This document shows, piece after piece, positions 3,327-22,425 of a stretch of DNA of 64,000 bases. The notes below the pieces were generated by a model. It did no database searches. It worked only from the letters and a program-made list of their open reading frames with translations, and had not been told where the DNA came from. This DNA comes from Gemmatimonadota bacterium (GTDB lineage Bacteria > Gemmatimonadota > Gemmatimonadetes > Gemmatimonadales > Gemmatimonadaceae). The position numbers were made by a program, and so were the translations under genes. The number at the start of each line of letters is the position of its first letter. The first letter of the stretch is position 1. Location: positions 32,001 to 96,000 of the forward strand of contig JAZJZK010000027.1 in NCBI GenBank assembly GCA_040389905.1, in the 5' to 3' direction.

Positions 3327-3328
3327 GC

Positions 3329-4420: not shown

Positions 4421-5257
4421 ATGCCCTCTTTGATGATCAATTCCGTGCGCTTGGCGAAATGGTATCTCTCCCTTCTTCCGGAAAGCCCCCCGGATTACTG
4501 GATGCACCGAGAGCCGATGGTCCGCGCGCGCATGGAATACGATGACGAGCGCTCGGCCGTCGGCTTCCATACGCTATTCACGATGGACCTTGCAAATAAG
4601 GACGTGCTCGACCTGGGATGCGGTTATGGCGGGCGCAGTGTCTACTTCAAGGAGCTCGGTGCGCGTCGCGTGGTAGCGATGGAAATCCGCGGGGAGATGA
4701 TCGATGAGGCGCTTGCGTTCGCCGCGGAGCGCGGCGTCACACTGGAGGGACTCGTTTCCGTTGGTGAGCAAATCGGACTTCCGCATGAAACAATTGACAT
4801 CATCACGTGCTACGACGTGTTCGAGCACGTTGAATCTGTCGCGGCGACGTTACAGGAGTGCTATCGTGTGCTCCGACCAGGCGGGATCGCGTACATCGTG
4901 TTTCCTCCATACCTCCATCCACTTGGCGGATCCCATCTTCACTCGTATCTATCGCGCTCACCTGCGCCCAACGCACTGTTCGGACGAGATACACTCTGGA
5001 CTGCGGTCCGCGAGCTGCTCATCGAGCGCGGAACCTTTGTCCCGGACAAGCGTCCCACTGATCCCCTTCCAGGGGTAAACGGAACAACCATCGCGCAATT
5101 CAGGAAGGCCTTGGCAGCGGTCCCATTCCGCGATGCGCAAGTCACGCTGCGACCTGTCAATGTTCCGCGACTAGGCGCCGTCGCAAGCGCGCTCTCGCGG
5201 ATCCCCGTCGTCCAGGAGGTCGCAGTCAGTCGGCTCCTTTGCGAACTGGCCAAATGA
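4421..5257 (+). CDS. Class I SAM-dependent methyltransferase (start uncertain; ORF open from 4304)
   Basis: 'VLDLGCGYGG', 'DVFEHV', 'RVLRPGG'. Confidence 0.82.
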   Translation: MPSLMINSVRLAKWYLSLLPESPPDYWMHREPMVRARMEYDDERSAVGFHTLFTMDLANKDVLDLGCGYGGRSVYFKELGARRVVAMEIRGEMIDEALAFAAERGVTLEGLVSVGEQIGLPHETIDIITCYDVFEHVESVAATLQECYRVLRPGGIAYIVFPPYLHPLGGSHLHSYLSRSPAPNALFGRDTLWTAVRELLIERGTFVPDKRPTDPLPGVNGTTIAQFRKALAAVPFRDAQVTLRPVNVPRLGAVASALSRIPVVQEVAVSRLLCELAK

Positions 5258-5284
5258 TTGTCTGGCCGTGCAATGAGCACCGCC

Positions 5285-6595
5285 TCAGATGTTCCGCGCC
5301 AGCCTGCTGGTCAGCGGATCCCAGCTGTGACTCCCGTCCTTCGTGATCAGTTCCACGACCGGGAGCGGAAAGATCATTCCTGTACCGGCATCGATCATCG
5401 GCTGCTCACGCTTCAGGAACTCGGTGCGGAAATGCCAGGGCAACACGAGATAGTAGTCCGGCTTCATCGCCCGTGACCGCTCCTCGGAGATGATGGGGAT
5501 ATTCGTGCCCAACGTGCGCGCCCCATCTTTGTCCGGATTGCGGTCGGCCGCGTAGGCGATGTGCGACTTATCCAACCCGCAGGCCTGAAGAATCGTGTTT
5601 CCCTTGGTCGACGCCCCATAGATGTGGATCGTCTTCCCCTGGTCGCGGAGGTGCGTGACCAGCGACGTCAGACTCCGCACGGCGTTCGAGACGCGTGCCT
5701 TGAACAACTCGTACGGCAGGTCTGTCTCAAGTTCGCGCTCGAATTCGCGGTGACGCAGGTCGGTCAGCTCTCGCCGAAACGTATCGTCGCCGACCGGATG
5801 GTCTTCCTCGTGCGTCACGAACACGCGGATGCTGCCGCCGTTGATGCTGTTCAACGCAGCGCGGCGAACCTTCATCCCTCCGGCGGCGACGATCCGCTCG
5901 ATCACGGCGAGACTGTAGTACTCGAGGTGCTCGTGGCAGATGGTGTCGTACGAATTGAGCTCCAGCGTGAGTGGCAAATATGCCACCTCGAAGATCCACA
6001 CACCGCCCGGCGCCAGCAATGCCTTGATGTTGCGCACAAAGTCAACCGGATCCTCGAGGTCGTAGAACATGGCGATCGACGTGACGATATCGAACGGCTG
6101 CTCTCCCGCCGCGCGCTGCAGGGTGCGTGACGGAAAGGTCTCCTGCACGACGTGCACGGTGGGCTCGCAGCCCAGCACCGCGTCGGACGGATCGCACCCG
6201 AACTGCACGACCTCTGCCGGGTAGTTGCGCAGCAGCGTCCCGTCGTTGCAGCCAATATCGAGCACGCGCAGCGGCGTGCGCCCCAACGTGGACATGGCAT
6301 CCGATACCACGCTGGCGAGGTGCCGGCGCATCGTTTCATTCGTGCCGGACCGGTACCAGTAGACCGAATAGAGGATTTCCGGTGGAACGCTGCACACCAT
6401 CTGCACCAGTCCGCACGCCTTTTCATCTCGGCTCGGATCGCAGCGCACCAGTGCTGTGGGAATGCGCCGCATTGGAGGCAACGGCTTTCCCTCCATCACA
6501 AAGGAGCCCTGGAGGTACTGCGGACCGAGGTCCAGCACCGGTGTCAACGCGGAGGATCCACAGGCGCGACACGTCGACCGAAAGGTCAGATGCAT
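5285..6595 (-). CDS. NDP-hexose C-methyltransferase (TylCIII/NovU-like, Zn-binding N-terminus)
   Basis: N-terminal 'CRACG' plus 'VRC...ACGLVQ'; 'VLDIGCNDGTLL', 'HEHLEYYS', 'YGASTKGNT', 'PDYYLVLPWHF'. Confidence 0.88.
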   Translation of the reverse strand: MHLTFRSTCRACGSSALTPVLDLGPQYLQGSFVMEGKPLPPMRRIPTALVRCDPSRDEKACGLVQMVCSVPPEILYSVYWYRSGTNETMRRHLASVVSDAMSTLGRTPLRVLDIGCNDGTLLRNYPAEVVQFGCDPSDAVLGCEPTVHVVQETFPSRTLQRAAGEQPFDIVTSIAMFYDLEDPVDFVRNIKALLAPGGVWIFEVAYLPLTLELNSYDTICHEHLEYYSLAVIERIVAAGGMKVRRAALNSINGGSIRVFVTHEEDHPVGDDTFRRELTDLRHREFERELETDLPYELFKARVSNAVRSLTSLVTHLRDQGKTIHIYGASTKGNTILQACGLDKSHIAYAADRNPDKDGARTLGTNIPIISEERSRAMKPDYYLVLPWHFRTEFLKREQPMIDAGTGMIFPLPVVELITKDGSHSWDPLTSRLARNI

Positions 6596-6599
6596 GGTA

Positions 6600-7625
<1,026 letters not shown>

Positions 7626-7662
7626 AGTGCGAGAAACCGGGACTGGCGAGAGGGGCGAGATT

Positions 7663-8661
7663 CTAGTGATGGTGGAGGGCGTGCGTGTCGACGTACTCGA
7701 GCAGCTCATCCGACGAGACGGTGGCAGCGCCCAACTTTCCGACTTCGATGCCGGCGGCAACGTTCGAGATGTATGCTGCCTCAGCGGCGGACGCGCCGCT
7801 GGCCAGCATACACGCAAGGTAAGCCGTCACGGTGTCTCCAGCTCCCACGACATCGAACACTTCGCGCGCCACCGTCGGTGCACGGGTGATGGCACCGGCC
7901 TCGTCTACAAGAACCATCCCGTGCTCCCCCAGCGTCAAGAGCAGGTATTTCGCGCCGAGCCGCCGCACCGTGTGCGCGAGGGCGTCATGATGCTCCATGT
8001 CGACTTCCGCGCCCATCGCCGCCGCCAGTTCCCGGCGGTTCGGCTTGAAGATTGTCGCGCCCTGAAAGTGGAAAAAATGCCTGAACTTCGGATCGACGAC
8101 GATCGGGATGCCGCGCGCCATAGCGGCCTTGAGGCCCGCGTCGATGAGCGCTTCCGTCAGCACGCCCTTGTTGTAGTCCTCGAGCACGAGGGCGTCTGCA
8201 CCGTCAATTGCGGCGCGCGTATTGTCGATCAGCTGCCCAATTTCCGCACCGGTGAGCGGCGAGTCCTCTTCTTCGTCGATGCGGAGCAACTGCTGGGACC
8301 GCGCCACGATGCGCGTCTTCTGCGTCGTCACTCGGCCGACCGTGGCGACCTGATGGGTGAGGATTCCAGCCGCGCCCAGCATGCTCCGCAGGCGGCCCCC
8401 GCCCGAATCGGCGCCGAGCGCGGCCACGAGTGTACATTCGGCGCCGAGCGCGCGAACGTTTTGTGCCACGTTGGCGGCACCACCGAGCGCATAGTCTCGC
8501 TTCTTGACCCGGACGACAGGTACGGGCGCCTCTGGAGAGATACGCTCGACGTCGCCGGACACGTAGACGTCGAGCATCGCATCGCCAATCACAGCAATTC
8601 GTTGCCCGGCGGCTCTCTTGAGAAGTTCGACCAATCGGCCGCGGCTCGGGGCAGGTATCAT
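7663..8661 (-). CDS. rfaE1: D-glycero-beta-D-manno-heptose-7-phosphate kinase (HldA/RfaE1, PfkB family)
   Basis: '[11 protein letters not shown]', 'GGAANVA', 'DYNKG', '[11 protein letters not shown]', 'VGKLGAATV'; ATG at 8661 is supported by the upstream promoter. Confidence 0.92.
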
Positions 8662-8671
8662 CGTTGCGCTG

Positions 8672-8700
8672 AACCTAGAGATCTTGTCGAGGGCGGTCAA
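8672..8700 (-). promoter_or_regulatory. Sigma70-type promoter for the rfaE1-gmd-C-methyltransferase operon
   Basis: Minus strand reads TTGACC-N17-TAGGTT, ending 10 nt before ATG 8661. Confidence 0.6.
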
Positions 8701-8781
8701 CGTGGATGAGGGCGTTGCCACCGCCATTCTTAGCGCTTTTCGGGCTAGGCGCGCCCGAGGCGCACGTTCACATTACACGCA

Positions 8782-9822
8782 ATGATCGCTGTCGTGACCG
8801 GTTCGTCAGGGTTCATCGGGTCGCACCTCGTCGAGGCGCTGCTCGCGCGCGGCGCGTCGGTGCGTGCGCTGCTGAGGCCGGATTCGGTCACGGGCCATCG
8901 TGATCCTCGTGTGAAATGCTGGCACGCGGACCTCCTCGACGACCGTTCAGTCCGCGAATCGGAGGTATGGCGTGGGGCAACGCACGTCTTCCACGTGGGT
9001 GGCGTGACGAAGGCCAGAACGCTCGCGCAGTTTCGGGACGGCAACACCATTCCCACGGCGAATATTCTCGCCGCGCTGTCGGCGCGTCCGTCGGGGAGCG
9101 TGCGTTTCATTCTCGTGTCATCGCAGGCGGCGGCAGGGCCCGCCGAGTCACCAGACCGGCCGGTGACCGAGGACGATGAGCGGAAGCCGATCGAAGCCTA
9201 CGGGCGGAGCAAGGGCGAAGCGGAAGACGTCACGACGCGATATTCACAATCCATCCCGGTCACGATCCTGCGGCCTGGTGCGGTCTATGGTCCGCGAGAT
9301 GTCGATTTCCTGAATGTGTTCAAGCAGGCAGTGAATCGCGTCGCATTTCATGCAGCGTCGCGCGAGCAGGCGATGTCCGTCGTGTACGTGCGCGACCTGG
9401 TGGAGGCGATACTCATCGCGGCAAATGCACGCGCGGCCGTCGGTCGAACCTATTTCGTGGCGGGCGAGGCGCCTGTGACGTGGGGTCAGATCTACGCACT
9501 GGTCGCGGGTTTTGCGGGCGTTCAGCCGATCGAACTGCAACTTCCTGCCGCAGCGTTGTGGCTCGCCGGTCAGGCCGGAAGCTTGCTTAGTCTCCTCACG
9601 GGCAAGGGTCTGCTCGTGAACGCGAACAAGATGGCACTGGCGCGCCCGAAGTGGTGGCTCTGCGATTCCTCGCGCATTCGCCGAGAACTCGGTTGGTCGG
9701 ACGCGGTCAGCCTACAGCAGGGCATTCTCGAGACGTATCTTTGGTACGTGAATGCTGGATGGCTTCGTCCGGCCGCGGGCGGCACGTCCAGGAACGCAGC
9801 GAACTCGGAGGAATCTGTCTGA
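8782..9822 (+). CDS. NAD-dependent epimerase/dehydratase (extended SDR); candidate 3-keto-ceramide/3-ketosphinganine reductase
   Basis: 'VTGSSGFIGSHL' Rossmann motif, 'YGRSK' (YxxxK), 'RPGAVYGPRD'. The specific role is inferred from context. Confidence 0.8.
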   Translation: MIAVVTGSSGFIGSHLVEALLARGASVRALLRPDSVTGHRDPRVKCWHADLLDDRSVRESEVWRGATHVFHVGGVTKARTLAQFRDGNTIPTANILAALSARPSGSVRFILVSSQAAAGPAESPDRPVTEDDERKPIEAYGRSKGEAEDVTTRYSQSIPVTILRPGAVYGPRDVDFLNVFKQAVNRVAFHAASREQAMSVVYVRDLVEAILIAANARAAVGRTYFVAGEAPVTWGQIYALVAGFAGVQPIELQLPAAALWLAGQAGSLLSLLTGKGLLVNANKMALARPKWWLCDSSRIRRELGWSDAVSLQQGILETYLWYVNAGWLRPAAGGTSRNAANSEESV

Positions 9823-9830
9823 GCACGACG

Positions 9831-12800
9831 ATGAAGAACGATGCGAAACGCGACCGCTGCCGGACACTCTTCGAGCTCGTCGAGTATCGAGCCGAAGCGA
9901 GCGCCGACAGGACGGCCTACCGCTTTGTGTCGTCGTCGGGTGAAGAAGACGGTACGCTGACCTACGGCGAGCTGCGCGAACGAGCAGCAATGATGGCGAG
10001 CCATCTGGCTGCTGTCACCGAGGCCGGCGATCGTGTCATCCTGCTATTGCCGCCGGGGCTGGATTACGTCGCGGCGTTGTTCGCCTGCCAATTTGCGGCC
10101 ACGGTCGCGGTGCCGGCCTATCCGCCCAATCCCCGGCGCCCGGATGGTCGCGTCGCCGGCATTATCGAAGACAGTGGCGCACGCGTCGCCATCGTCTCGT
10201 CCGCATTGCATGGCCGCCTTGGGCGCTCGATCGAGAACTCGCCGGTCCTTGGCCGCGTCGTCTGGCTCGACATCGAATCGATGAACGGGGACTCGGCGGA
10301 CGGCGGCATACGTCCTCCAGCGCGCGATGCGCTCGCGTTTCTGCAGTACACGTCTGGGTCGACGGGTGCACCGCGCGGCGTAATGCTGCCGCATGCGTCG
10401 GTCATGCACAACTTCGGCGTCATCCATCATGCGCTGCGCCACAGCGAAGACGATGAAGGCGTGTTCTGGGTGCCGCCGTACCACGACATGGGCCTCGTTG
10501 GCGGAATTCTCGAGCCGCTGTACGCCGGCTTTCCGACGAATCTGATGTCACCGTCGACGTTCTCGCAGCGGCCCGCGCGGTGGCTCGAGGCATTGTCGAA
10601 GTACCGCGCGACGACGAGCGGCGCGCCGAACTTTGCCTTCGACCTCGCAGCGGAACGCATTACGGAGGAAGAGAAGACCGCGCTCGATCTGTCGCATTGG
10701 CGCGTGGCCGCGAATGGAGCGGAACCGGTGCGCGCGGATACTATCGAGCGCTTCACGCGGGCGTTCGCGCCGTACGGCTTTCGGGCAGAGACCTTCATGC
10801 CGTGTTACGGTCTCGCGGAAATCACGTTGTTCGCGGCAGGAGAAACGCGGGTCACGCCGCCAGTCATCCTCTCCGCCGATCGCGCCCTCCTCGAGGCGCG
10901 ACGCCTCGCCGAAAGTGTTGCTCCCGACGCGTCGCGGCTCGTGACAGTCGGCCCCCCCGCGCGCGGCGTGACGATCTGCATCGTCGATCCCGATACGAAG
11001 CGCGAGTGCGCACGCGACGAAGTGGGGGAGATCTGGCTGGCGAGCGAAAGCATCGGGTCGGGCTATTGGGGACGGCCGGCCGAGACGAAGGATGCCTTCA
11101 ACGCCCGACTGGATGGCCGCGATGAACGATTCCTTCGTACGGGAGACCTCGGCGCGTTCTACGAGGGTGATCTCATCGTCACTGGACGCCTCAAGGATCT
11201 GGCAATCGTCGGTGGCCGCAATTTCTACCCGCAAGACATCGAGCGCGCCGCAGAAGAGAGTCACCCCAACGTACGTTCGGGTGGCGTCGCAGCATTCAGC
11301 GTCGGCGACCTCGGCAGTGAGAAGGTCGTCGTGGTGGCGGAAGTGGTGCGCCACCATCGTGAGCACCAACAGGGTGAGGTCGTCGGCGCGGTCCGGACGT
11401 CGGTCGCCGATGCACTTGGCGTCGTGGTCGACGACGTCGTCCTGATTCGACACGGGACGCTCCCGAAAACGTCGAGCGGAAAGTTGCAGCGCCGGCTCAC
11501 CAGGGCGCGCTTCCAGTCGGGTGAGCTGCGCGGCACGGAACCACCCGCACCGCCGCGGAATGGGACGCACGCGCCGGACGAGCATGCGTCCAGCGCAGAG
11601 CGGGCAGCAGGGATGCGCTCGTGGCTGCGCGATTATGCGCGAACGACGCTCGATTCGCGGCGTATGGATGAACGTCGTGAGATGGATCCGAGTCTTACCC
11701 GCGAGTTCGCCGCGCGCGGATTCTTCGGCTTGCAAACGCCGCAGAGCCTTGGTGGTACGGCGCTCGCGCACACCGATATGCTACGCGTCGTCGAGCAGTT
11801 GTCGGCAATCGATCTGACGCTCGCGACGTACATCGGCGGACACAATTCGCTCGGGATCCAGCCGATTCTCCGTCACGGGTCCACCGCGCTCCGCGATGCC
11901 GTCATCCCCCAGCTTGCGCGCGGTGCGCGGATCGCGGCGTTGGCGGTCACTGAACCGGCCGCCGGCTCGAATCCGTGGGCGATCGAGTCCGTCGCCATTC
12001 CAGTCGACGGGGGTTATCGGCTGCATGGCGTGAAGAGTTGGATTGGTTCGGCAGGTGTGGCCGATGTCTTCAACGTGCTGGCGCGCGTGCCGGGTGATAC
12101 TGGCGGTCTCACGGCCTTCGCGCTCAATGGAGGAGCGGCGGGACTGCGTATTGGTGATCCCGCGCTCACGATGGGCATGCGGGCCATGCTCCAGAATGCC
12201 GTCCATCTCGACGGTGTCTTTGCAGCCAGCGACGTGATTCTCGGCCATGTCGGCGGCGGCTTCGATGTGGCTCACGACACCTTCCTCCAGGCGCGCCTCG
12301 GCGTGGCCGCCATGTGCCTCGGTGCCATCAAGCGTTCGATCCAGCTCGCGCACCGATACGCGGCGCGACGGAAGGTGGCGTCCGGCAAGTTGCTGGCGCA
12401 CCCGGTGACGCGAGCGCGTCTGGGCCGAATGACTGCCTCCGCCGCCGCGCTCGATACCTACCTCGAGGTGATGGCGTTGCGCCTCGATGCCGGTGTGGCG
12501 CTACCGGAAGATGCATTCGTCATCTGCAAGACGGCCGCACCTGAGCTGTTATGGGATGCCGTCGATAGCGCGATGCAACTGCTCGGGGGGCGAGGATACG
12601 TCGAGACGAATCCGTTGGCGCCGATGCTGCGTGATGCTCGGCTCCTCCGCATCTTCGAAGGTCCCACCGAGCCGCTGTTGGTGCATCTCGGTGCCCGAAC
12701 GCTCAGGGAGGGGGCAGGGCAGCGCACGCTCCTCGGCGACGTTCTCGGCGCGCCGGACATTGCGGATCGCGTCGCCGAAGTGGCGCTGTTGACGACGGGC

Positions 12801-14705
12801 CGGCTCCTGCGCTCCGGGCGCGGCACCGCGCGCGCGACGGCGCAACAGTGGGCGAGTTACCGCCTTGGCCTCGTCGTTACCGAAGCGGCCATGTTGGCAT
12901 CGGCACGAATGGCCGCACAGCGCGCCATTCCCGGCGCTGAACACGCCATCACTGTCTTCGAGGAACGGCTCGAGGCAGCCGTCGCGCGCTGCGTCACGCC
13001 GCATGCGGACGAGCGGCCTGCACTCGACGCGCCTGGTCTCGACGATGCCATCGCGTGGGCGGGCGACGACATCGGTGACATTGAACAGCGCTCCAACACG
13101 GCGCTCGACCCCATGCTCGCCGTCGACTGGGACGACTCGCAGCGCCCAGCCGAAGCAGCGGAGGCGCCTGCCTCCGTCGCAGCGACTCGTACGCCGTCGC
13201 TGTCGTTCATCCTCGAGTGGCTCGTCGAGGAATTCCAGCTGCCACCCGGTACGGCGGAACCCGAAACGAGCCTCCGCGATCACGGCCTCGACTCACTGGC
13301 CGCAACGCGACTTGTCGTGGCGCTCGAAACCCACCTTGGTCGTCGGATCGACGCGTCGCTCCTGTGGCGCGCGGCAACGATCGGTGAATTTGCCGCTGCC
13401 GTCGACGGCGCGCGCGTGGAGGCGTTCACCTTTACGCCGCCCCCGGCGGCGCGCGATCATCGTGCGGATGGAATTCCGGTGGAACAGTGGCCCGAGTTCC
13501 GTGCCCTGCGCTCCCGAATGGCCGACGTCACGACACGAGGCACCGCCAACCCGTACTTCGCCGTCCATGAAGGCATCTCGGGAGCGACAGCCGTGGTGGC
13601 CGGGCGCGAGCTGCTGAATTTCGCCAACTACAATTACCTGGGCCTCTCCGGACATCCTGCCGTCACGCGCGCCGCGCGCGATGCAACTGACCAATACGGT
13701 ACGTCAGTGTCGGCGAGCCGTATTGCCTCGGGCGAACGACCGCTTCATGGCCAGCTCGAATCCGCCATCGCGAAATTCGTCGGCGCGGATGACGCGATCG
13801 TTTTCGTGGGTGGACACGCGACGAACGTGTCCGTGCTGTCGCACCTGTTCGGTCCAGGCGATCTCGTCCTCTGTGACGTGCTGATGCACAACAGCGCCCT
13901 GCAGGGAGCCGCGTTCTCGGGCGCGCGCTGGCTCACCTTTCCACACAACGACTGGCAGGCGTGCGATGCCATGCTCGCCGAGCTGCGTGCTCAGCATCGG
14001 CGAGCGGTCGTGGTCATCGAAGGTGTCTACAGCGCCGACGGCGATGTGCCGGATCTCGGCAAATTCGTAGACGTGAAGGTGCGTCACAACGCCATGCTCA
14101 TGGTCGATGAGGCGCATTCGCTCGGCGTGCTCGGAACCGGGGGCCGCGGAATCGCCGAGGGCGCGGGGGTCGAGCCGGCGGCAATCGACATCCTGATGGG
14201 AACGTTGAGCAAGACGTTGGCGAGCTGCGGCGGCTACGTCGCCGGCAGCAGCGCCCTGGTCGAGTATCTCAAGTACACCGCGCCCGGCTTTGTCTACAGC
14301 GTCGGCATCTCACCCCCGAATGCGGCGGCAGCGCTCGAAGCGCTGCGCGTTCTCGAGGCTGAACCCGAGCGCGTTACGCGCCTGCAGCAGCGAGCGGCGT
14401 ACTTTGCCACGGTGGCGAGAGAAGCGGGGCTGAATACGGGGCGCAGTGCAGGGAGTGCCGTCATTCCAATCGTCGTCGGCGACTCGCACCGCGCCGTGCG
14501 CGTCTCGCAACGCCTGTTCGATCGGGGTATCAACGTGCAGCCGATGATCAGCCCCGCGGTGCCGAACGATGAAGCGCGCCTCCGATTCTTCATCTCCAGC
14601 GAGCACACCACTGAGCAAATCGACGAGGCCATTCGCTTGACGGCAGAAGCGCTGGTGTCGAGCACAGAGAGCGATTCGTCGTTGCAACTGACGGAACAAG
14701 CGTAG
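9831..14705 (+). CDS. Multidomain FAAL - acyl-CoA dehydrogenase - ACP - PLP alpha-oxoamine synthase (SPT/AONS family) fusion, ~1624 aa
   Basis: FAAL (~9831-11530): 'FLQYTSGSTG', 'YHDMGL', 'PCYGLAE', 'RTGDLG', 'PKTSSGK'. ACAD (~11610-12700): 'ALAVTEPAAGS', 'GVKSWI', 'QLLGGRGY', 'RIFEGPTE'. ACP: 'GLDSL', Ser at 13293. PLP domain (~13480-14705): 'NYNYLGL', 'VDEAHS', 'GTLSK', Lys at 14211. Confidence 0.9.
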   Translation: MKNDAKRDRCRTLFELVEYRAEASADRTAYRFVSSSGEEDGTLTYGELRERAAMMASHLAAVTEAGDRVILLLPPGLDYVAALFACQFAATVAVPAYPPNPRRPDGRVAGIIEDSGARVAIVSSALHGRLGRSIENSPVLGRVVWLDIESMNGDSADGGIRPPARDALAFLQYTSGSTGAPRGVMLPHASVMHNFGVIHHALRHSEDDEGVFWVPPYHDMGLVGGILEPLYAGFPTNLMSPSTFSQRPARWLEALSKYRATTSGAPNFAFDLAAERITEEEKTALDLSHWRVAANGAEPVRADTIERFTRAFAPYGFRAETFMPCYGLAEITLFAAGETRVTPPVILSADRALLEARRLAESVAPDASRLVTVGPPARGVTICIVDPDTKRECARDEVGEIWLASESIGSGYWGRPAETKDAFNARLDGRDERFLRTGDLGAFYEGDLIVTGRLKDLAIVGGRNFYPQDIERAAEESHPNVRSGGVAAFSVGDLGSEKVVVVAEVVRHHREHQQGEVVGAVRTSVADALGVVVDDVVLIRHGTLPKTSSGKLQRRLTRARFQSGELRGTEPPAPPRNGTHAPDEHASSAERAAGMRSWLRDYARTTLDSRRMDERREMDPSLTREFAARGFFGLQTPQSLGGTALAHTDMLRVVEQLSAIDLTLATYIGGHNSLGIQPILRHGSTALRDAVIPQLARGARIAALAVTEPAAGSNPWAIESVAIPVDGGYRLHGVKSWIGSAGVADVFNVLARVPGDTGGLTAFALNGGAAGLRIGDPALTMGMRAMLQNAVHLDGVFAASDVILGHVGGGFDVAHDTFLQARLGVAAMCLGAIKRSIQLAHRYAARRKVASGKLLAHPVTRARLGRMTASAAALDTYLEVMALRLDAGVALPEDAFVICKTAAPELLWDAVDSAMQLLGGRGYVETNPLAPMLRDARLLRIFEGPTEPLLVHLGARTLREGAGQRTLLGDVLGAPDIADRVAEVALLTTGRLLRSGRGTARATAQQWASYRLGLVVTEAAMLASARMAAQRAIPGAEHAITVFEERLEAAVARCVTPHADERPALDAPGLDDAIAWAGDDIGDIEQRSNTALDPMLAVDWDDSQRPAEAAEAPASVAATRTPSLSFILEWLVEEFQLPPGTAEPETSLRDHGLDSLAATRLVVALETHLGRRIDASLLWRAATIGEFAAAVDGARVEAFTFTPPPAARDHRADGIPVEQWPEFRALRSRMADVTTRGTANPYFAVHEGISGATAVVAGRELLNFANYNYLGLSGHPAVTRAARDATDQYGTSVSASRIASGERPLHGQLESAIAKFVGADDAIVFVGGHATNVSVLSHLFGPGDLVLCDVLMHNSALQGAAFSGARWLTFPHNDWQACDAMLAELRAQHRRAVVVIEGVYSADGDVPDLGKFVDVKVRHNAMLMVDEAHSLGVLGTGGRGIAEGAGVEPAAIDILMGTLSKTLASCGGYVAGSSALVEYLKYTAPGFVYSVGISPPNAAAALEALRVLEAEPERVTRLQQRAAYFATVAREAGLNTGRSAGSAVIPIVVGDSHRAVRVSQRLFDRGINVQPMISPAVPNDEARLRFFISSEHTTEQIDEAIRLTAEALVSSTESDSSLQLTEQA

Positions 14706-14707
14706 TT

Positions 14708-14814
14708 GTCCGCTCGTTTTGTCGCCCTGAGTGAAACGAAGGGCCCCCACATCATGCCGTTGCAAGAGCAGGTGCAGGCGCGTCGCTTCGCTCAGGGCGA
14801 CAAAACGAGCGGAC
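14708..14814. repeat. REP-like palindromic element with perfect 24-bp inverted arms between convergent genes
   Basis: GTCCGCTCGTTTTGTCGCCCTGAG (14708-14731) and its exact reverse complement (14791-14814). Confidence 0.9.
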
Positions 14815-14824
14815 TGCATGGGGC

Positions 14825-15709
14825 CTACAGCAATCTCCGCTCGACGACGCGCGCCACTCCAGTCGCCGCGATGCCCACGAACAACCCTGCCACGACATCC
14901 ACGGCGTAGTGGTATCCGCCGTATACGGCTCCAAACCCAAGCCCGATTGTCACGAAAACCATGACGATGCCGAGCGCTCGCTGAAATCGGAGCGCGCTCA
15001 TGGTCGCGACGACCGACGCCGCCACGTGCGATGAGGGAAAGGCCGTCCCGCGCGATGAGCCCGACTCCAACAGCGCGATGACGATCGAGCGAACGGGGCC
15101 ATCGGGCGCGTCGGACGGACCGAGCAGGAAGCGTGGGCCATCCACGGGCAGCAAGGCATACGTGGCAAAGCACAGGCAGTACACGACGACCAGTGCGAAG
15201 GTTGACCGCACAAACGCGTTCCGACTGCCAGTCAACGTCAACAATGCCGGCGGAGCATAGATGAGGGCATAGTAGGCGAGGTAGCAGAGGTGCAGCACCT
15301 CGCTCAATGCACTCGAGTGCAGCTGGGCGGCCAGCGTACGCGAAGGGTCGGAGGCGAAAGCGCTCGCCTCCCAGCCGCGAACCAACGCGTCCAGGTGCGG
15401 CCGGCCGACGCCTTCGATGATCCACCGCAGCTCGATGTAGAGAAAAGGCCCGACCGCGAGGGGCGTCCAGTCGCGCACGGTGCGCACGATTCGGCTGGGA
15501 AAAGTGCCGCACACCAACGCACATACCACGGCGGAGAGCATCGCGGTGTGCATAGCCAGCGGCGCCCACGTTGCCGTCCTTGCGGCCAGCCCTACGAGGG
15601 GCACGACCATCACAACGAGGTAGACCGACAGGACCCCGAGCGAGAGCGCCGTGTAGCGGTCGCTCACATCGCGGTCCGGCATCCTCAACCGATCGAGTAG
15701 TCGACGCAT
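14825..15709 (-). CDS. PAP2-superfamily membrane protein, AUR1/inositolphosphorylceramide-synthase-like
   Basis: Multiple TM helices; 'YALLPVDGPR', 'AFPSSH' and 'YHYAVD' match the AUR1/PAP2_3-type catalytic His/His-Asp motifs. Confidence 0.78.
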   Translation of the reverse strand: MRRLLDRLRMPDRDVSDRYTALSLGVLSVYLVVMVVPLVGLAARTATWAPLAMHTAMLSAVVCALVCGTFPSRIVRTVRDWTPLAVGPFLYIELRWIIEGVGRPHLDALVRGWEASAFASDPSRTLAAQLHSSALSEVLHLCYLAYYALIYAPPALLTLTGSRNAFVRSTFALVVVYCLCFATYALLPVDGPRFLLGPSDAPDGPVRSIVIALLESGSSRGTAFPSSHVAASVVATMSALRFQRALGIVMVFVTIGLGFGAVYGGYHYAVDVVAGLFVGIAATGVARVVERRLL

Positions 15710-15765
15710 GGCCCGCAGTATTACCTTTGCGCTCATCCGCCGATAGCCACCCGTTCAGGACGCCC

Positions 15766-16905
15766 GTGAGTCTCGAGATCATTTCCGCCGAGTCGAAGCG
15801 CGACATCAACCGCTTCGTCGATCTGCCATGGCAGATCTATACCAAGAAGGACCATGCACAGTGGATCCCACCGCTTCGGTTGACGGTGCTGGACGCACTC
15901 GATCGGAAGAAACCGTTCTACCGAGACGCGGAACGCGCGCTTTTCATCGCGGTGCGCGACGGAAAGGACGTCGGTCGAATCGCCGCGATCGAGAATCGGA
16001 CGCACAACCGCGTGCATGGAGACAAGGTGGGTTTCTGGGGCTTCTTCGAGAGCGTCGACGATCAGGAGGTGGTGAATGCCCTGTTCGACGCTGCCGCGCG
16101 CTGGCTTGCCGGCCGCGGCCTCGATACGATGCGCGGGCCCGTCATGCCGAGCACGAACTACGATTGCGGTCTGCTGGTCGATGGGTTCGAGCATGAGCCG
16201 ACGTTCATGACGCCGTGGAACCCTCGCTCGTATCCCGCCATGATCGAGCGGGCCGGCCAGGCCAAGGTCAAGGACCTCGTGGCCTACGTCATACCGATGG
16301 CTGATGGGTTCGAACTGCCGCCGACGTTCAAGGCACTGGCGGAACGGGCGCAGTCGAAAGCCGAAATCACCTTTCGCGACCTGGATCTCTCGAATTGGGG
16401 TGAGGAACTCGAGCGATGCTGGGATGTTTACAACTCCGCATGGGAGGAGAATTGGGGCTTCGTGCCCATGACGAAGGATGAATTCGTCGTCATGGCGAAG
16501 GACCTCAAGCCGCTCATGATCACGCAGTTCGTCTTCATGGCCGAGGTCAAGGGCGTTCCGGTCGGCTTCATGTTCATCGTGCCGGATTTCAACAAGATCC
16601 TGAAGAACATTCCCAACGGCAAACTCTTTCCAACGGGCGCGTTCAAGTTGCTCCTCGGGAAGTCGAAGCTGCGCGACGGGCGCATCATGGCGTTCGGCAT
16701 CAAGAAGGAATTCCGGTCCCGCTCCATCTTTCCCGTCTTTGCCTACGAAGCATTCCGACGCGGGCGCGCCTACGGAGCAACCAGCGCTGAGGCGAGCTGG
16801 ATTCTCGAGGACAACGAATTGCTCCTCGCGCCGCTGCGGGGGATCGGGCTCAAGGAACACCGCCGGTGGCGTTTGTACGACGGAACGACATCGCGCTCCG
16901 GCTGA
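15766..16905 (+). CDS. GNAT-fold N-acyltransferase of the YghO / bacterial ceramide synthase (bCerS)-like family
   Basis: 'FVDLPWQIY', 'WIPPL', 'VGRIAAI', 'GFWGFFES.DD', 'RGP....N...GLLVDGF', 'YN.AW..NWGF.P', 'SWILEDN'; GTG start after a CAGGA Shine-Dalgarno. Confidence 0.75.
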   Translation: MSLEIISAESKRDINRFVDLPWQIYTKKDHAQWIPPLRLTVLDALDRKKPFYRDAERALFIAVRDGKDVGRIAAIENRTHNRVHGDKVGFWGFFESVDDQEVVNALFDAAARWLAGRGLDTMRGPVMPSTNYDCGLLVDGFEHEPTFMTPWNPRSYPAMIERAGQAKVKDLVAYVIPMADGFELPPTFKALAERAQSKAEITFRDLDLSNWGEELERCWDVYNSAWEENWGFVPMTKDEFVVMAKDLKPLMITQFVFMAEVKGVPVGFMFIVPDFNKILKNIPNGKLFPTGAFKLLLGKSKLRDGRIMAFGIKKEFRSRSIFPVFAYEAFRRGRAYGATSAEASWILEDNELLLAPLRGIGLKEHRRWRLYDGTTSRSG

Positions 16906-17012
16906 GCACGTAGAAAGGAGGTCTCGCGGGTACGCTGAACGGCCGTGTTCGGCACACGCTTTGCCTAGTAGGCAGTACCGAACTGCCCGCCGAGACTCCT
17001 CAGACCGATCGT

Positions 17013-17825
17013 TTGCCGACCCTTTCTACACGCCTCGCGTCCGCCACCAAGGCAAAACTCCGCACCGTTCAGGACTACTTCTCCCTGGCCGGCCGCGCGT
17101 TGGGCTTCATTTTCGCCCGGCCCTTTTACGCGCAGGATCTCATCCAGCAGATGGATGAGATCGGTGTAAAGTCGCTGGGGATCGTGCTGCTCACCGGTTT
17201 CTTCACCGGAATGGTGCTCGCACTGCAATCGAGCGTGCAGCTCCAGACCTTCGGCGCGACGATGTACATCGGACGACTCGTTTCCGCATCGATGATCCGC
17301 GAGCTCGGCCCCGTGCTCGCCGGTCTCATGGTCGCTGGACGCGTAGGGTCCGGAATCGCCGCGCAACTCGGATCCATGCGCGTGACCGAGCAGATCGACG
17401 CCTTGAACACACTCGGCACCGATCCCATCAAGAAGCTGGTGACGCCGCGCGTACTGGCTGCGCTACTCATGCTGCCGGTGCTCACCGTCATCAATGACTT
17501 CGTCGGCATCCTCGGCGGCAATCTCATTTCGACGGTGCTGGTCGGCATTCCGAGCGGGCTGTACTGGCGCACGGTGTGGGAGCAGATCGCGTCCGATGGA
17601 TTCACGATGCGCTTCATTCCGAACGACTTCGTCCAGGGCATCACGAAACCGTTCGTCTTCGGCGGCATCATTTCGATTTCGGCGTGCTACTTCGGGCTCA
17701 ACACGACCGGCGGTACGGAAGGCGTGGGTCAGGCAACGACGCGGACCGTGGTGCTCTCGAGCATCCTGATCCTCATCGTGGACTACTTCCTCACGCAGAT
17801 CCTTCTTTCGCTGTTTGCACCATGA
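17013..17825 (+). CDS. mlaE: MlaE-family ABC permease
   Basis: 'RELGPVLAGLMVAGRVGSGIAAQLGSMRVTEQIDAL', 'GGTEGVGQATT'. Confidence 0.92.
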   Translation: MPTLSTRLASATKAKLRTVQDYFSLAGRALGFIFARPFYAQDLIQQMDEIGVKSLGIVLLTGFFTGMVLALQSSVQLQTFGATMYIGRLVSASMIRELGPVLAGLMVAGRVGSGIAAQLGSMRVTEQIDALNTLGTDPIKKLVTPRVLAALLMLPVLTVINDFVGILGGNLISTVLVGIPSGLYWRTVWEQIASDGFTMRFIPNDFVQGITKPFVFGGIISISACYFGLNTTGGTEGVGQATTRTVVLSSILILIVDYFLTQILLSLFAP

Positions 17826-18742
17826 TCGACGATCCGCGTGACAAGGGCGACGACGGAACGTTGCCGCGCGAGTCCAAGCGTCGCGGTGAAGGCCGGCGTC
17901 TTGCCGAGCGGAAGCCGGAGAACGTGCGCGCGGCCATTCGGGACGAGCTCGCGGTCGATGAGCCTGCCGATGCGGCGATCGCCGCAAAAAAGGCCGAGCG
18001 GGGCGAAGCCGAGGCGATCATCGAGCTCAGCCACGTCTTCCTTGCGTTCGATTCGCCTATTCTCGAAGACGTCTCGTTCGTTGCGCGCAAAGGGGAGACG
18101 ATCTGTGTGGTCGGAGAGTCGGGTACCGGTAAGAGCACAGCGCTCAAGCTCATCCTTCGCCTACTGGTTCCAGACAAGGGATCGGTCTGTATCGATGGCC
18201 AGGACATCACCGGACTCACCTTCAAGGAAGCACTCGAGGTTCGGCAGCGCATGGGCATGGTCTTCCAGGGGGCCGCGCTGTTCGACTCGATGTCCGTGTT
18301 CGAGAACATCGCATACCCGTTGCGAGAGCACACGGATCTGTCCGAGGAGGAGATCGAACAGCGCGTGCGGGAGAAGCTGGATTTCGTCGATCTCGAGCCG
18401 GACCGTGTCATGAGCCAATTGCCGTCGGAGCTGTCTGGGGGCATGCGGAAGCGCGTCGGCATCGCGCGCGGCATGGCCAACAATCCCGAGATCATGCTGT
18501 ACGACGAGCCGACCTCGGGGCTCGATCCGCTCACCACGGGCACGATTACGCGGCTGATCATGAAGCTGCAGCGAGAGCTGAACGTTACCAGCGTGGTCGT
18601 TTCGCACGACATTCGCTCCGTGTTCCGCATGGCGACACGCGTTGCCGTTCTGCACGACCGAAAGATCGCCTTCTTCGGCACGCCGGAAGAGATGTCCGCC
18701 TCCGACGACACTTACCTCCGCGATTTCCTCGGCGGCAACTGA
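17822..18742 (+). CDS. mlaF: MlaF-family ABC ATPase
   Basis: Walker A 'GESGTGKS', 'FQGAALFDSM', 'LSGGMRKRV', 'YDEPTSGLDP'. Confidence 0.92.
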   Translation: MIDDPRDKGDDGTLPRESKRRGEGRRLAERKPENVRAAIRDELAVDEPADAAIAAKKAERGEAEAIIELSHVFLAFDSPILEDVSFVARKGETICVVGESGTGKSTALKLILRLLVPDKGSVCIDGQDITGLTFKEALEVRQRMGMVFQGAALFDSMSVFENIAYPLREHTDLSEEEIEQRVREKLDFVDLEPDRVMSQLPSELSGGMRKRVGIARGMANNPEIMLYDEPTSGLDPLTTGTITRLIMKLQRELNVTSVVVSHDIRSVFRMATRVAVLHDRKIAFFGTPEEMSASDDTYLRDFLGGN

Positions 18743-18743
18743 C

Positions 18744-19721
18744 ATGAAACGCTCTTCGACACTCACGTGGGACCAGCTGCGCGTCGGCCTCGTCATTCTC
18801 CTCGCCGTAGGAGTCATCGGCGTCGCCGTCTACAAGCTGGGAGAATCCGCCAATCTCTTCGCCAAGCGCTACGAACTCATTGCCTATCTGCCGGATGCAA
18901 ACGGGTTGAAGGTAGGGGGCTCGGTGATGATCGCTGGCCAACTCGCCGGCATCGTGGAGAAGATCGATTTCCTTCCCGTGGATGCGGATACGACGCGCAA
19001 CCTGAAGCTCACGCTCAAGGTCGACGTCAACCTCCGCGAGCAGATCCGCCGCGACTCGCGCGGGAAGTTGCGAACACTCGGACTGTTAGGGGACAAGGTG
19101 TTCGACATTTCGCCGGGAACGCCGCGGACGCAGCCGCTCGCGGAGGGCGACACCGTCTCCATCACCGCCGTCCTCGACTATGACGCGGTCATCGCACAGG
19201 CGAGCGGTGCCGTCACGGACATGGTTTCGCTCACGCGTGACCTCCGCGCCATCACCGGCGGCATCGTCCGAGGTGAGGGCTCGCTCGGGAAACTCGTCAC
19301 GGATCGCACCCTCTACGATCAGCTCAACAACACGTTGGCGCGCGCCAATACGATGCTGGCGAGTCTTCAGAATCCCAACGGGACGATGGGACGCATGCTC
19401 AACGATCCCTCGCTCTACAACAAGCTCATTGGCGTCATCAGCTCCACCGACTCGCTGATCATGTCGATCAATTCGAGTAAGGGCACGGCGGGCATGCTGC
19501 TGCGTGATTCGACGCTCTACAAGAACATGGTGGGGATCACCGTCGGGGCGGACTCCTTGCTCAAATCCTTATCGAACGGAAAGGGAACCGTTGGCCGATT
19601 CCTCACGGATCAGACGCTCTACGACCAGGTCAACAAACTCGTGACGGACCTGAGCGCCATTCTTGCTGACATCCGAAAGGATCCCAGCAAATACACGAAG
19701 GGCATCATCAAGGTTTTCTAG
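18744..19721 (+). CDS. mlaD: MlaD/MCE-domain protein with long repeated helical C-terminus
   Basis: N-terminal TM helix; MCE motifs 'ANGLKVGGSVMIAG' and 'GLLGDKVFDISPG'; four 34-aa repeats. Confidence 0.88.
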   Translation: MKRSSTLTWDQLRVGLVILLAVGVIGVAVYKLGESANLFAKRYELIAYLPDANGLKVGGSVMIAGQLAGIVEKIDFLPVDADTTRNLKLTLKVDVNLREQIRRDSRGKLRTLGLLGDKVFDISPGTPRTQPLAEGDTVSITAVLDYDAVIAQASGAVTDMVSLTRDLRAITGGIVRGEGSLGKLVTDRTLYDQLNNTLARANTMLASLQNPNGTMGRMLNDPSLYNKLIGVISSTDSLIMSINSSKGTAGMLLRDSTLYKNMVGITVGADSLLKSLSNGKGTVGRFLTDQTLYDQVNKLVTDLSAILADIRKDPSKYTKGIIKVF

Positions 19722-19812
19722 CACCGTCAGACATACCATGCACAGCACTTGCCCCGCCACTCGCGTCGGACTAAAATCCGGATTCCGGTACCTGACAGGT
19801 ATCGGAACATCC

Positions 19813-19886
19813 GGTCGCGTAGCTCAGCTGGTTAGAGCGCTGCTTTCACACAGCAGAGGTCCACGGTTCGAGTCCGTGCGTGACCA
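19813..19886 (+). tRNA. tRNA-Val (anticodon CAC), CCA not encoded
   Basis: Acceptor stem GGTCGCG/CGTGACC+A; D-arm AGCTCAGCTGGTTAGAGC; anticodon arm CTGCT-TTCACAC-AGCAG; T-arm CACGG-TTCGAGT-CCGTG. Confidence 0.95.
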
Positions 19887-19902
19887 CTCGGTTGCCCGCA
19901 AT

Positions 19903-22425
19903 GTGAGGCGGTCACTCTTTGTGGCCGCCTCTTTGCTGCCCGGCAGCGTCGCCGTCGCGCAACTTCCGACGACGAAACCCACGGCGGCCCAGGCGCAAAC
20001 GCTCCTGCAGACCCGCCCCGATCTCGTCGCGCAACTCAGGCAGCGCTTCGCGACGGCCGGCATGACCAAGGAGCAGGTGCACGCACGCCTGCGGGCCGAG
20101 GGATATCCCGAGGACATGCTCGACGCCTACCTGCCGGGCATTACGGGGAACGCGGCCGAGCCGACCGATGATGTCTTTCGCGCCGTGCGGGCGCTCGGCA
20201 TCGCGGACGCCGAAGAGATTGCCGTGTTGCAAGGCGCGAACGCCGGTCAGGGTGTCCGAAGCAGTGGCGACGCACGCGCTGGCGTGGCAGCGGTCAGCGA
20301 CACGCTGCGTTCCGCGCGGAGCGCGACGGACAGCGCGGCGATCGTGCGCTCCGCCAACGATAGCGGGTTTACCGTGTTCGGCCTCGACATTTTCCGTGGA
20401 TCGACGACGCAATTCGATCCGAACGTCAACGGACCGATCGACGACAACTACCGGCTCGGGCCTGGTGACAAGCTCGTGTTGATCCTGACCGGCGATGTCG
20501 AGGCGAGCTACTCGCTCGATGTCACACGCGAAGGGTTCGTCGTCATTCCGTCGGTCGGCGAGGTGCACGTTGCGAGTTTGACGCTCGGCCAGTTGCGCGC
20601 ACTGTTGGCATCCCGGCTTTCGCGCGTGTACTCGGGCATTCGCGCCAACAATCAGGGAACGACGCGCTTTTCGATCAACGTGGCCCGGTTGCGATCGAAT
20701 CAGGTGTACGTGCTCGGCGATGTGTTGCGCCCAGCCAGCTATGTGGTGTCGAGCGCCGGAACGGCGCTCACGGCGCTCTATGCCGCCGGCGGGCCGACGA
20801 TCAATGGCTCGCTGCGGCGCGTTGAAATCCGGAGGGCAGGCAGTAGCGCCGGAACGGTCGACCTGTACGACTACATCCTTCGTGGCGACGCCTCCCATGA
20901 TCTGCGGCTGGAAACCGGGGACGTCGTATTCGTGCCGGTTCACGGTGCGCGCGTTCGCATCGTTGGCGAGATCGCGCGGCCGGCCACCTACGAACTGCTG
21001 CCAGGGGAAACGCTCACCGACGTGGTGCGAAACGCGGGCGGGTTCCGCGTGACGGCCGCGCGGCAACGAGTACTCGTCGACCGTATCATGCCGCCCGGTG
21101 AGCGGCGCGCCCCGGGCTTCGATCGGGTCACGATCGATGTGGCATCCGAGGCGGGGCTCGCCGCCGCGGGATTCGCGCTGCAGGACGGCGACGTCGTGCA
21201 CGTCCTTGCGATTGCGGACCGTGTGCGCAATCGCATCTCGATTACGGGCAACGTCTACCAGCCGGGCGCGCAGGGCTACACGCCTGGCATGCGATTGTCC
21301 GACGCGCTGCGCAAGGCGGGCGGCCTTCAGCCGGACACGTATCTCGGACAGGTCCTCATCTCGCGTCTCCGCAGCGACTCGACGCGCGCGCAACTGCGCG
21401 CGACGCTGGCTGACACCACAGGTCGGGTGATCGATGACCCCGCGCTTCAGGAGGACGATCAGGTCACGGTGTTCTCGCTGACGTCGTTCCGGCCGGAACG
21501 CTACGTCTCGATCGGCGGTGCGATTCGGAACGGCAACCGCTTTCCGTACCGCGAGGGGATGACGCTGCGCGACCTCATTCTTCTTGCGGGCGGCGTCCAG
21601 GAGAGCGCCTACCTGAAGGAAGCCGAGATCGCACGCCTTCCCGCGAGTCGTGACAGCGGTCGCACCGCGACGACGATTCGCGTGGCGCTTGACTCGACGT
21701 ACCTCCCGGAGCGGAAGCCCAATGGCGACTACCGTGGCGCGCCCGGCCTACCAACGAGCGCGAGCGGCGCACCGGAAGTCATCCTGCAGCCGTATGACAA
21801 CGTCCTCATCCTCCGGCAACCGAGTTGGGAACTGCAGCGCACGGTCCTGCTTCAAGGCGAAGTGCGATTCCCAGGAGCCTATTCGTTGGAGACGAAAAGC
21901 GAACGGTTGTCCGACCTGATCGCGCGTGCGGGTGGGCTGACGGACGAAGCGTATGCGGACGGCATCGTCTTTCTCCGCGCACAGGGCGGTGTCGGTCGCG
22001 TTGGCGTGGATCTCTCCGCGGCGCTCAGAAGCCGAGAGAGCAGCGACAATCTCATCCTCCGCGACGGTGACAACATCACCGTGCCGGCGTTCAATTCCGT
22101 CGTTACCATTCGCGGGGCAGTGAACCAACCGTCGACGGTGGCGTATGTTCGCGGGATGGGCATCGACTACTACATTGGGGCCGCAGGAGGCGCCGCCAAG
22201 AACGGCGACGACGGCCGCGCCTATGTCGCCCAGCCGAGTGGAAAGCTCGAGTCGGTGCGCCGGCACTTTCTGCGTCCGACCTCGATGCCCCGTCCGAAAC
22301 CTGGCAGCGTCGTTACCGTTCCCGAGCTCGATCCGAGTGACAAGAAAGATTTCGTTGCGCTGGCAGGCAGTGTGGCGCAGATCATCGCGGGAACGGTCGC
22401 AATCATCGTGGCGCTTCGGCGCTGA
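19903..22425 (+). CDS. SLBB-domain polysaccharide export outer-membrane protein (Wza/KpsD-like)
   Basis: Signal-peptide-like start, 'YRLGPGDKL' Poly_export motif and multiple SLBB repeats ('GEV.RP..Y', 'AGG'). Start moved downstream of the tRNA to GTG 19903. Confidence 0.88.
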   Translation: MRRSLFVAASLLPGSVAVAQLPTTKPTAAQAQTLLQTRPDLVAQLRQRFATAGMTKEQVHARLRAEGYPEDMLDAYLPGITGNAAEPTDDVFRAVRALGIADAEEIAVLQGANAGQGVRSSGDARAGVAAVSDTLRSARSATDSAAIVRSANDSGFTVFGLDIFRGSTTQFDPNVNGPIDDNYRLGPGDKLVLILTGDVEASYSLDVTREGFVVIPSVGEVHVASLTLGQLRALLASRLSRVYSGIRANNQGTTRFSINVARLRSNQVYVLGDVLRPASYVVSSAGTALTALYAAGGPTINGSLRRVEIRRAGSSAGTVDLYDYILRGDASHDLRLETGDVVFVPVHGARVRIVGEIARPATYELLPGETLTDVVRNAGGFRVTAARQRVLVDRIMPPGERRAPGFDRVTIDVASEAGLAAAGFALQDGDVVHVLAIADRVRNRISITGNVYQPGAQGYTPGMRLSDALRKAGGLQPDTYLGQVLISRLRSDSTRAQLRATLADTTGRVIDDPALQEDDQVTVFSLTSFRPERYVSIGGAIRNGNRFPYREGMTLRDLILLAGGVQESAYLKEAEIARLPASRDSGRTATTIRVALDSTYLPERKPNGDYRGAPGLPTSASGAPEVILQPYDNVLILRQPSWELQRTVLLQGEVRFPGAYSLETKSERLSDLIARAGGLTDEAYADGIVFLRAQGGVGRVGVDLSAALRSRESSDNLILRDGDNITVPAFNSVVTIRGAVNQPSTVAYVRGMGIDYYIGAAGGAAKNGDDGRAYVAQPSGKLESVRRHFLRPTSMPRPKPGSVVTVPELDPSDKKDFVALAGSVAQIIAGTVAIIVALRR

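Follow-up and report, generated by a model that had tools for sequence, protein, structure and literature searches.

A conserved four-gene module in Gemmatimonadota with a FAAL-ACAD-ACP-oxoamine synthase fusion, predicted to make a ceramide-type lipid

We analyzed a contig stretch of 64,000 nucleotides (the window) from a Gemmatimonadota genome, labelled G000, and within it seven genes at positions 8782–19721. Four of these genes form a conserved module, and encode an SDR-family reductase, a fusion of a FAAL (fatty acyl-AMP ligase), an acyl-CoA dehydrogenase (ACAD), an acyl carrier protein (ACP) and an α-oxoamine synthase (AOS), a PAP2-family membrane protein, and a tandem GNAT acyltransferase. 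As judged from its sequences, the module very probably makes a ceramide-type lipid; a more specific mechanism, in which the fusion would assemble an unsaturated long-chain base on the carrier that it contains itself, is favored with less assurance. The original prediction had described seven adjacent genes as a ceramide-type pathway. All seven were found at the positions listed here, and the pathway reading is supported by: (i) the YghO-like GNAT, (ii) the co-occurrence of the genes, and (iii) the exchange of the fusion with stand-alone serine palmitoyltransferase (Spt) at the same slot in other genomes. The module and the domains of the fusion are:

8782–9822, plus strand: extended SDR of the NAD-epimerase family, CerR/epi candidate (Pfam PF01370 Epimerase, E 2e-28)
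9831–14705, plus strand: FAAL-ACAD-ACP-AOS fusion, 1,624 aa in a single open frame (AMP-binding, three acyl-CoA dehydrogenase Pfam domains, PP-binding, Aminotran_1_2)
9831–11555, plus strand: FAAL domain of the fusion, AasR equivalent (NCBIfam FAAL models; 34% identity to E. coli AasR, ECD_02851)
11601–13100, plus strand: ACAD domain of the fusion, VLCAD/ACAD9 architecture (RIFEG motif with Glu943)
13191–13415, plus strand: ACP domain of the fusion, Ser1155 in a DSL motif for phosphopantetheine (Pfam PF00550, E 6e-12)
13476–14660, plus strand: pyridoxal phosphate (PLP) AOS domain of the fusion, PfSgaB/RkpG clade, Lys1461 in GTLSK (identities and trees)
14825–15736, minus strand (antisense to the operon): AUR1/IPC-synthase-like PAP2_3 membrane protein, head-group transferase candidate (Pfam PF14378, E 2e-12)
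15766–16905, plus strand: YghO/bCerS-family tandem GNAT, ceramide synthase candidate (full-length alignment to YghO and model)

First, the GNAT aligns over its full length to E. coli YghO (33% identity, E 2e-65), and its predicted structure (one of two models made, the other being of the ACAD-ACP segment) matches tandem GNATs, which bears out its earlier assignment to the bCerS/YghO family. Searches of the GNAT against Pfam and NCBIfam gave no match, and E. coli YghO likewise has none in NCBIfam. The gene is present as a single copy in G000, where it is the only match of YghO. The best G000 matches of E. coli BL21 YghO, AasR, Epi and Spt all fall in the cluster, and AcpR has no match in the genome. 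YghO and ECD_02852 are named, and not assayed, as homologs of Caulobacter CC_1154 and CC_1164, respectively (PMC9386255). In other Gemmatimonadota, the SDR encoded next to a stand-alone Spt is 35–37% identical to that of the module, which is a candidate CerR on account of its synteny, the sequence likeness being weak.

Second, we analyzed the gene neighborhoods in a sample of 201 Gemmatimonadota genomes (the phylum sample), 134 of which contain the same GNAT. An AOS gene lies no more than 5 kb upstream on the same strand in at least 113 of the 127 strong-GNAT genomes other than G000, and no more than 250 bp upstream in at least 110 (lower bounds, since weak GNAT matches are omitted and 218 AOS matches are not counted). 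Without the unpublished genomes G056, G096 and G181, the pairing is seen in at least 111 of 124. All 13 stand-alone AOS beside a GNAT that were scored fit the Bacteroidota Spt model best (446–532 bits), and the usual gene order at the loci fetched from outside the genus of G000 is AOS-GNAT-SDR(-PAP2). Within this genus, none of 55 genomes contains an AOS above 343 bits on the same model. Because a Spt-like AOS adjoins the GNAT elsewhere and is without counterpart in the genus, we take the fusion to fill the place of Spt among four functions that are otherwise the same. The presence of a stand-alone spt in the same slot elsewhere had been set as a check beforehand, and is borne out by these counts. 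In most of the Gemmatimonadota sampled (L009–L023 and the phylum sample), these genes form a compact spt-yghO-SDR(-PAP2) operon whose Spt is of the Bacteroidota type.

Third, the module is retained across the genus. Among the 150 matches listed in the phylum sample, the close fused form occurs only in G000 and G076, which belong to one genus. The fused AOS is present in 28 of 36 sampled genomes of this genus, and the ACAD of the four-domain form (at least 60% identity) in 16 of 55, counts that include the unpublished G217 and, for the ACAD, G000. The search for the GNAT covered 34 of the 36 genomes, which are kin and not independent, and many of them incomplete. Of the 26 that have the fused AOS, 25 carry the GNAT, versus one of the eight that lack it; in the lone GNAT genome without the fusion, GNAT and PAP2 lie at a contig end. 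The 21 loci fetched from the 28 fusion genomes (L132 repeats L024 and is counted once) comprise six four-domain and 12 three-domain forms, the latter lacking the ACAD and being the more frequent in the genus, and three that are cut. The antisense PAP2 gene is kept in 21/21, the GNAT in 19/21 and the upstream SDR in 18/21, every miss falling at a contig end, and four further four-domain loci show the same module as far as their contigs reach. The co-occurrence of the genes in other genomes, the lack of which was to refute the original prediction, is thus observed. Downstream of the fusion, 11 of 12 three-domain loci encode an Sfp-type phosphopantetheinyl transferase, as does one of seven four-domain loci (the window being among the seven); the Sfp-type gene of G000 sits on contig C2.

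A protein library search returned about 16 full-length four-domain relatives with 65–69% identity from independent sources, which, together with the same ACAD in 16 of the 55 genus genomes, argues that the fusion is not an assembly artefact. Eight further four-domain relatives share 40–44% identity, two of them named Nostoc, and the same search returned a long series of FAAL-ACP-AOS proteins of about 1,100 aa without the ACAD. The TSGST motif, Glu943 in RIFEG, Ser1155, Asp1426/His1429 and Lys1461 are invariant in 14 aligned four-domain proteins, as is Asp1154 next to Ser1155 in the ACP. The FAAL domain scores 383–429 bits with NCBIfam FAAL models versus 167 bits with NF004837, a model of long-chain CoA ligases, and none of these scores passes its cut-off. 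The fusion probably works as a homodimer, by analogy with oxoamine synthases and VLCAD-type dehydrogenases.

Activation, carrier and condensation are all present in one polypeptide, as originally predicted; the condensing domain, however, is not a canonical Spt but belongs to the PfSgaB/RkpG clade. It is 34% identical to E. coli Spt, 49% to a Sinorhizobium AOS from an rkp-like cluster, and 56% to the L113 AOS, encoded behind a polyketide synthase (PKS) of type I on a Pseudomonas plasmid. It also carries the PfSgaB/RkpG-type motifs GTSVSASR, GHATN and GTLSK. In our trees, the fused AOS domains of the genus all group with SgaB-like and RkpG-like proteins. The long branch that they share has 100% SH-aLRT support and is separate from canonical Spts, and a joint clade of fused AOS and Gemmatimonadota Spt is rejected (p-AU 8e-6); these are quick trees, and the group for the p-AU test was defined after an earlier tree had been seen. 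The trees reject the native Spt as the source of the fused AOS, and its separate clade together with the failure of the curated models rejects canonical Spt identity. Of the comparison with Spt, BioF and RkpG proposed earlier, the RkpG-like placement stands, and membership of the Spt clade and fit to its curated models do not.

The GNAT of the genus groups among Gemmatimonadota GNATs. Because the AOS groups with SgaB/RkpG while the GNAT stays among those of the phylum, the simplest reading of the sequences is that the native Spt was displaced by an imported SgaB-type enzyme. The FAAL and AOS trees hold all genus fusions together, with the four-domain L124 shifting between groups, and the GC content gives no trace of recent transfer. 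No partner iterative PKS is encoded upstream of the AOS, where FAAL-ACAD-ACP is found instead, and G000 has no close SgaA-like match; a search for SgaB in four Pseudomonas genomes returned none. Kbl identity of the AOS domain was rejected, and the sole other AOS of G000 is Kbl, next to tdh.

PfSgaB is a proven serine-selective SPT, which uses L-serine almost exclusively, excludes alanine and glycine and accepts C16-CoA (PMC12134224), and the Pseudomonas plasmid AOS is its close ortholog, judged by eye against the sequence printed in the supplement of that paper. By analogy with this clade, we infer that serine is the substrate of the AOS domain. Use of alanine, glycine or cysteate instead, or release of a diffusible amino-ketone or amino-alcohol metabolite, appears decidedly improbable: the tested clade member excludes the first two, a head-group transferase requires the C1 hydroxyl of serine, and the domain scores 128 bits against the cysteate transferase 28eh versus 219 bits against S. 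multivorum SPT, on which basis cysteate transferase identity was rejected. What keeps this alternative in view is that AOS specificity is unreadable from first-shell residues (PMC13692747), and that similar fusions occur elsewhere without ceramide genes. We set aside a negative paper on Nostoc punctiforme (PMC8895605), which deals with an enzyme of the BioF type.

The ACAD is intact and, as judged from sequence, belongs to a FAAL-linked loading-module subfamily. Its closest PDB sequences are VLCAD and ACAD9, which are also the top fold matches of its model (pLDDT 86.5), the extra C-terminal helical domain included. RIFEG and Glu943 are kept in all six four-domain loci checked. Among the 150 relatives that match best in the library, a FAAL domain stands ahead of the ACAD in at least 88, and FAAL-ACAD(-ACP) loading modules predominate; an AOS is also present in 10 of the 150, some of other clades. 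Electron transfer flavoprotein (ETF) genes are present in the genome. FAAL-associated ACADs desaturate lipopeptide acyl chains, giving delta-2, cis-3 or delta-4 bonds (PMC9113097). Given a ceramide product, desaturation by the ACAD is probable, and a double bond near the head of the long-chain base is likely on sequence grounds. Its position is not readable from sequence, because two lipopeptide ACADs with 60% identity differ in this respect (delta-2 versus cis-3; PMC9113097); a remark on beta,gamma bonds in the NvlI paper is ambiguous (PMC9324945). In the base, a 2,3 bond of the acyl chain would appear as C4=C5, as in sphingosine, and a 3,4 bond as C5=C6, the trans-2 case taking less than half of the likelihood that we assign to desaturation.

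An alternative within an otherwise identical ceramide pathway is that the ACAD came along as a passenger when a FAAL-ACAD-ACP loading module was imported, or that it edits or shortens chains, with ordinary dihydroceramide as the product. FAAL-ACAD-ACP is a mobile loading unit, and the same gene set occurs with the three-domain form in 12 and the four-domain form in six of the 21 loci. Against this, the catalytic and FAD motifs are kept in every four-domain locus checked and conservation of the ACAD (60–69%) equals that of the FAAL; we regard a passenger ACAD as unlikely, and retain an active dehydrogenase in the pathway proposed below. Elsewhere in the genome (G000:C37:16–24 kb), some 6 kb separate the gene of a second FAAL, 42% identical to the fusion, from that of a fatty-acid desaturase.

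We propose the following sequence of steps. The FAAL would adenylate a long fatty acid and load it onto the internal ACP, as suggested by the family chemistry, the ACP having been primed by an Sfp-type phosphopantetheinyl transferase. The ACAD would then take two hydrogens near the thioester, most likely at the 2,3 or 3,4 position, and probably pass the electrons to ETF. Next, the PLP domain would join the chain to L-serine and free a 3-keto base with its double bond at C4 or C5, to be N-acylated by the YghO-family GNAT and reduced at the ketone by the SDR, in either order. Finally, the AUR1-like protein would add a phospho head group, possibly phosphoinositol. In the trans-2 case, trans-2-enoyl-ACP and serine would give 3-keto-sphing-4-enine, a one-polypeptide, desaturase-free and oxygen-independent route to 4E-sphingosine, the backbone of ceramides of the animal type, that we put forward tentatively, as a possibility rather than an expectation. 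Eukaryotes form the 4E bond only afterwards, with an oxygen-dependent desaturase. If this route is real, the AUR1-like enzyme would yield inositol phosphoceramide on a true sphingosine base.

With regard to the last step, His237, His276 and Asp280 of the PAP2 protein are constant in all 11 aligned sequences, and correspond to the His, His, Asp triad of AUR1/IPC synthases. The protein scores 29 bits against the phosphoinositol dihydroceramide synthase model NF052609 and does not pass its cut-off of 480. Genes for a myo-inositol-1-phosphate synthase (MIPS) and a CDP-alcohol phosphatidyltransferase stand in tandem elsewhere in the genome (G000:C34:74.7–76.7 kb, L139), a pair that likely serves phosphatidylinositol synthesis. 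Because MIPS adjoins the transferase, phosphoinositol is a plausible head group.

Several observations weigh against the proposed pathway. The GNAT and SDR were compared with the E. coli homologs of Caulobacter bCerS and CerR, homologs whose roles are only proposed, and the SDR is 26% identical to ECD_02852, in a near-tie with a second SDR of G000 (82.8 versus 79.7 bits). The link between the AOS domain and PfSgaB is a by-eye comparison via a proxy protein, and the domain passes none of the curated Spt models (315/640, 300/500 and 221/670 bits); the stand-alone Gemmatimonadota Spt candidates also fall below cut-off, with 446–532 versus 640 bits. Most of the genus does without the ACAD. The GNAT is found in only five of 38 other sampled genomes of the family, so that the lipid is not essential family-wide. 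Seven three- or four-domain fusions outside the genus (L028, L029, L031, L042, L051, L056 and L084) have no GNAT within the DNA inspected, and the fusion architecture alone thus does not imply ceramide. Finally, the highest NCBIfam score of the AOS domain is with bioF.

This last score, and the source name “8-amino-7-oxononanoate synthase”, would make the PLP domain BioF of biotin synthesis. The score of 343 bits is nevertheless below the cut-off of 426, and an SgaB-like protein also scores best with bioF (332 bits). In addition, neither bioD nor bioB over cut-off was found in any of five genomes, four of which are at least 96% complete. On these grounds BioF identity was rejected, and we give it a negligible chance; a serine-using SgaB-type domain remains our preferred assignment.

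Compared with known systems, the module has five predicted functions in common with the AasR-AcpR-Spt, bCerS (CC_1154/YghO) and CerR (CC_1164/ECD_02852) set of Caulobacter crescentus and E. coli BL21(DE3) (PMC9386255, PMC11087976, PMC11324152), including a FAAL-type loader, a dedicated carrier, a YghO-family N-acyltransferase and an epimerase-family reductase. Unlike in that set, loader, carrier and condensing enzyme are joined in one polypeptide, the condensing domain is of another clade, the module has an ACAD and an AUR1-like gene besides, and its neighbors do not resemble LptF/G. PfSgaABC of Pseudomonas fluorescens MYb115 (PMC12134224), like the related Sinorhizobium rkp system, shares the condensing-enzyme clade and a carrier-bound chain delivered by a megasynthase. 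In PfSgaABC, an iterative PKS makes C24–C28 chains and a classical SDR leads to free sphinganines and phosphoglycerol sphingolipids, whereas in the module the FAAL is predicted to load a fatty acid that is already complete, the AOS forms part of a fusion, and there is a bCerS-like enzyme. Activation followed by dehydrogenation of a carrier-bound fatty acid is also the scheme of FAAL-ACAD(-ACP) modules such as NvlI of nostovalerolactone (PMC9324945) and LipB, Orf22, Tar5/6 and enduracidin Orf45 of lipopeptides (PMC9113097). Those modules feed PKS or nonribosomal peptide synthetase lines, whereas here the chain would go straight to PLP condensation and, likely, into a membrane lipid. The PAP2 protein shares the PAP2_3 family and His-His-Asp motifs with phosphoinositol dihydroceramide synthase BT_1522 and yeast AUR1 (PMC9246714), but differs in its weak profile match and in that the inositol genes are unlinked to the module.

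Each chemical step has a precedent; the combination, with displacement of Spt by an SgaB-type fusion and a built-in dehydrogenase, is without precedent in the literature searched. No FAAL-(ACAD)-ACP-AOS fusion in sphingolipid synthesis is described in that mainly open-access literature (the Spt/bCerS homolog lists of bCerS and Black Sea studies may include some, or may include Gemmatimonadota), nor was a study of Gemmatimonadota sphingolipids found, most subscription papers lying outside its scope. If correct, the pathway would represent a third architecture for starting bacterial sphingolipids, beside stand-alone Spt and PKS-fed SgaB, and would make Gemmatimonadota widespread likely producers. 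SgaB-type enzymes, mostly annotated as BioF, would plug into the bCerS pathway, and surveys restricted to canonical Spt would miss producers. The same partner genes accompany orthologs with three and with four domains, a natural pair that opens the question of bacterial sphingoid-base unsaturation to a direct test, and a soluble single-chain enzyme that converts a fatty acid to the unsaturated base would be of use in biocatalysis.

The three remaining genes follow the GNAT and were identified by profile matches:

17013–17825, plus strand: MlaE
17576–18742, plus strand: MlaF (open frame, start not fixed)
18744–19721, plus strand: MlaD

The PAP2 gene is therefore alone on the minus strand, with the other six genes on the plus strand. 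The mlaEFD genes had been counted as part of the system, a claim that fails on synteny: they follow the GNAT in none of 19 related loci, and hldE directly adjoins mlaE in G076 and G230. All five relatives searched have an mlaEFD ortholog (84–93% identity), which in G076 lies 26 kb from the module, beside hldE and wza. The module in the window is inserted in an older hldE|mlaEFD-wza junction, and its adjacency to mlaEFD is a rearrangement. A dedicated exporter is thus rejected, and mlaEFD may still have a role in moving the lipid.

The module is flanked by a surface polysaccharide region, with genes for methyltransferases, a sugar C-methyltransferase, gmd, an hldE-like kinase and a large Wza-like SLBB protein (window positions 2496–8727 and 19663–22425). 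For rkp/wcb-type PKS-AOS clusters, the lipid has been proposed to act as a polysaccharide anchor or primer. A similar main role here, in place of a free membrane ceramide, would be compatible with the proposed pathway, and is suggested by the occurrence of this AOS clade in capsule clusters and by the location of the module in this genus, where it borders on polysaccharide regions that contain wza, wzc, wzi and glycosyltransferase genes. The module nevertheless contains no gene resembling lipoteichoic acid synthase or a capsule anchor, and has bCerS- and AUR1-like genes instead; moreover, the neighbors vary between genomes while the four genes are constant, and a shared position in one genus may reflect plain inheritance. 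We consider this role rather improbable, and a ceramide-type membrane lipid the better reading.

The start of the antisense PAP2 gene lies 30–90 bp from that of the GNAT, a layout kept across the genus, and read-through of the PAP2 gene from the upstream operon may be the source of the GNAT transcript. Promoter and terminator scans of the locus gave results at chance level.

Related arrangements occur elsewhere. In a second family of the phylum, a cluster in G005 (contig C105, L005; also L006 and L008) has SgaABC-like genes (a 2,549-aa PKS, an AOS and a classical SDR) with a YghO-like GNAT and an efflux system immediately behind them; this candidate PKS-derived ceramide pathway would independently link the SgaB-type AOS clade with bCerS. 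A Streptomyces plasmid (L115, NZ_CP108712.1, 4769–9295) encodes a Spt-like AOS, a YghO-like GNAT, an epimerase-family SDR and a condensation-domain protein in one operon. The matches listed from a scan of genome contigs are mostly generic FAALs, and a metagenome scan gave one distant locus. A phylum-sample match in G106, with 36% identity, lies in a 1,216-aa open frame. FAAL-ACP-AOS proteins with AOS of other clades are encoded at L042:9949–13299 and L084:5322–8699, with a Spt-like AOS in Limnothrix and an AOS of yet another clade in Blastocatellia, and Noviherbaspirillum has a split arrangement of AOS and FAAL-ACAD-ACP (L068:9629–15035). Taken together, multiple origins of this type of fusion are suggested. 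Two proteins of 2,600 aa (P0035 and P0068) continue from FAAL-ACP-AOS into a second FAAL-ACP and a class III aminotransferase.

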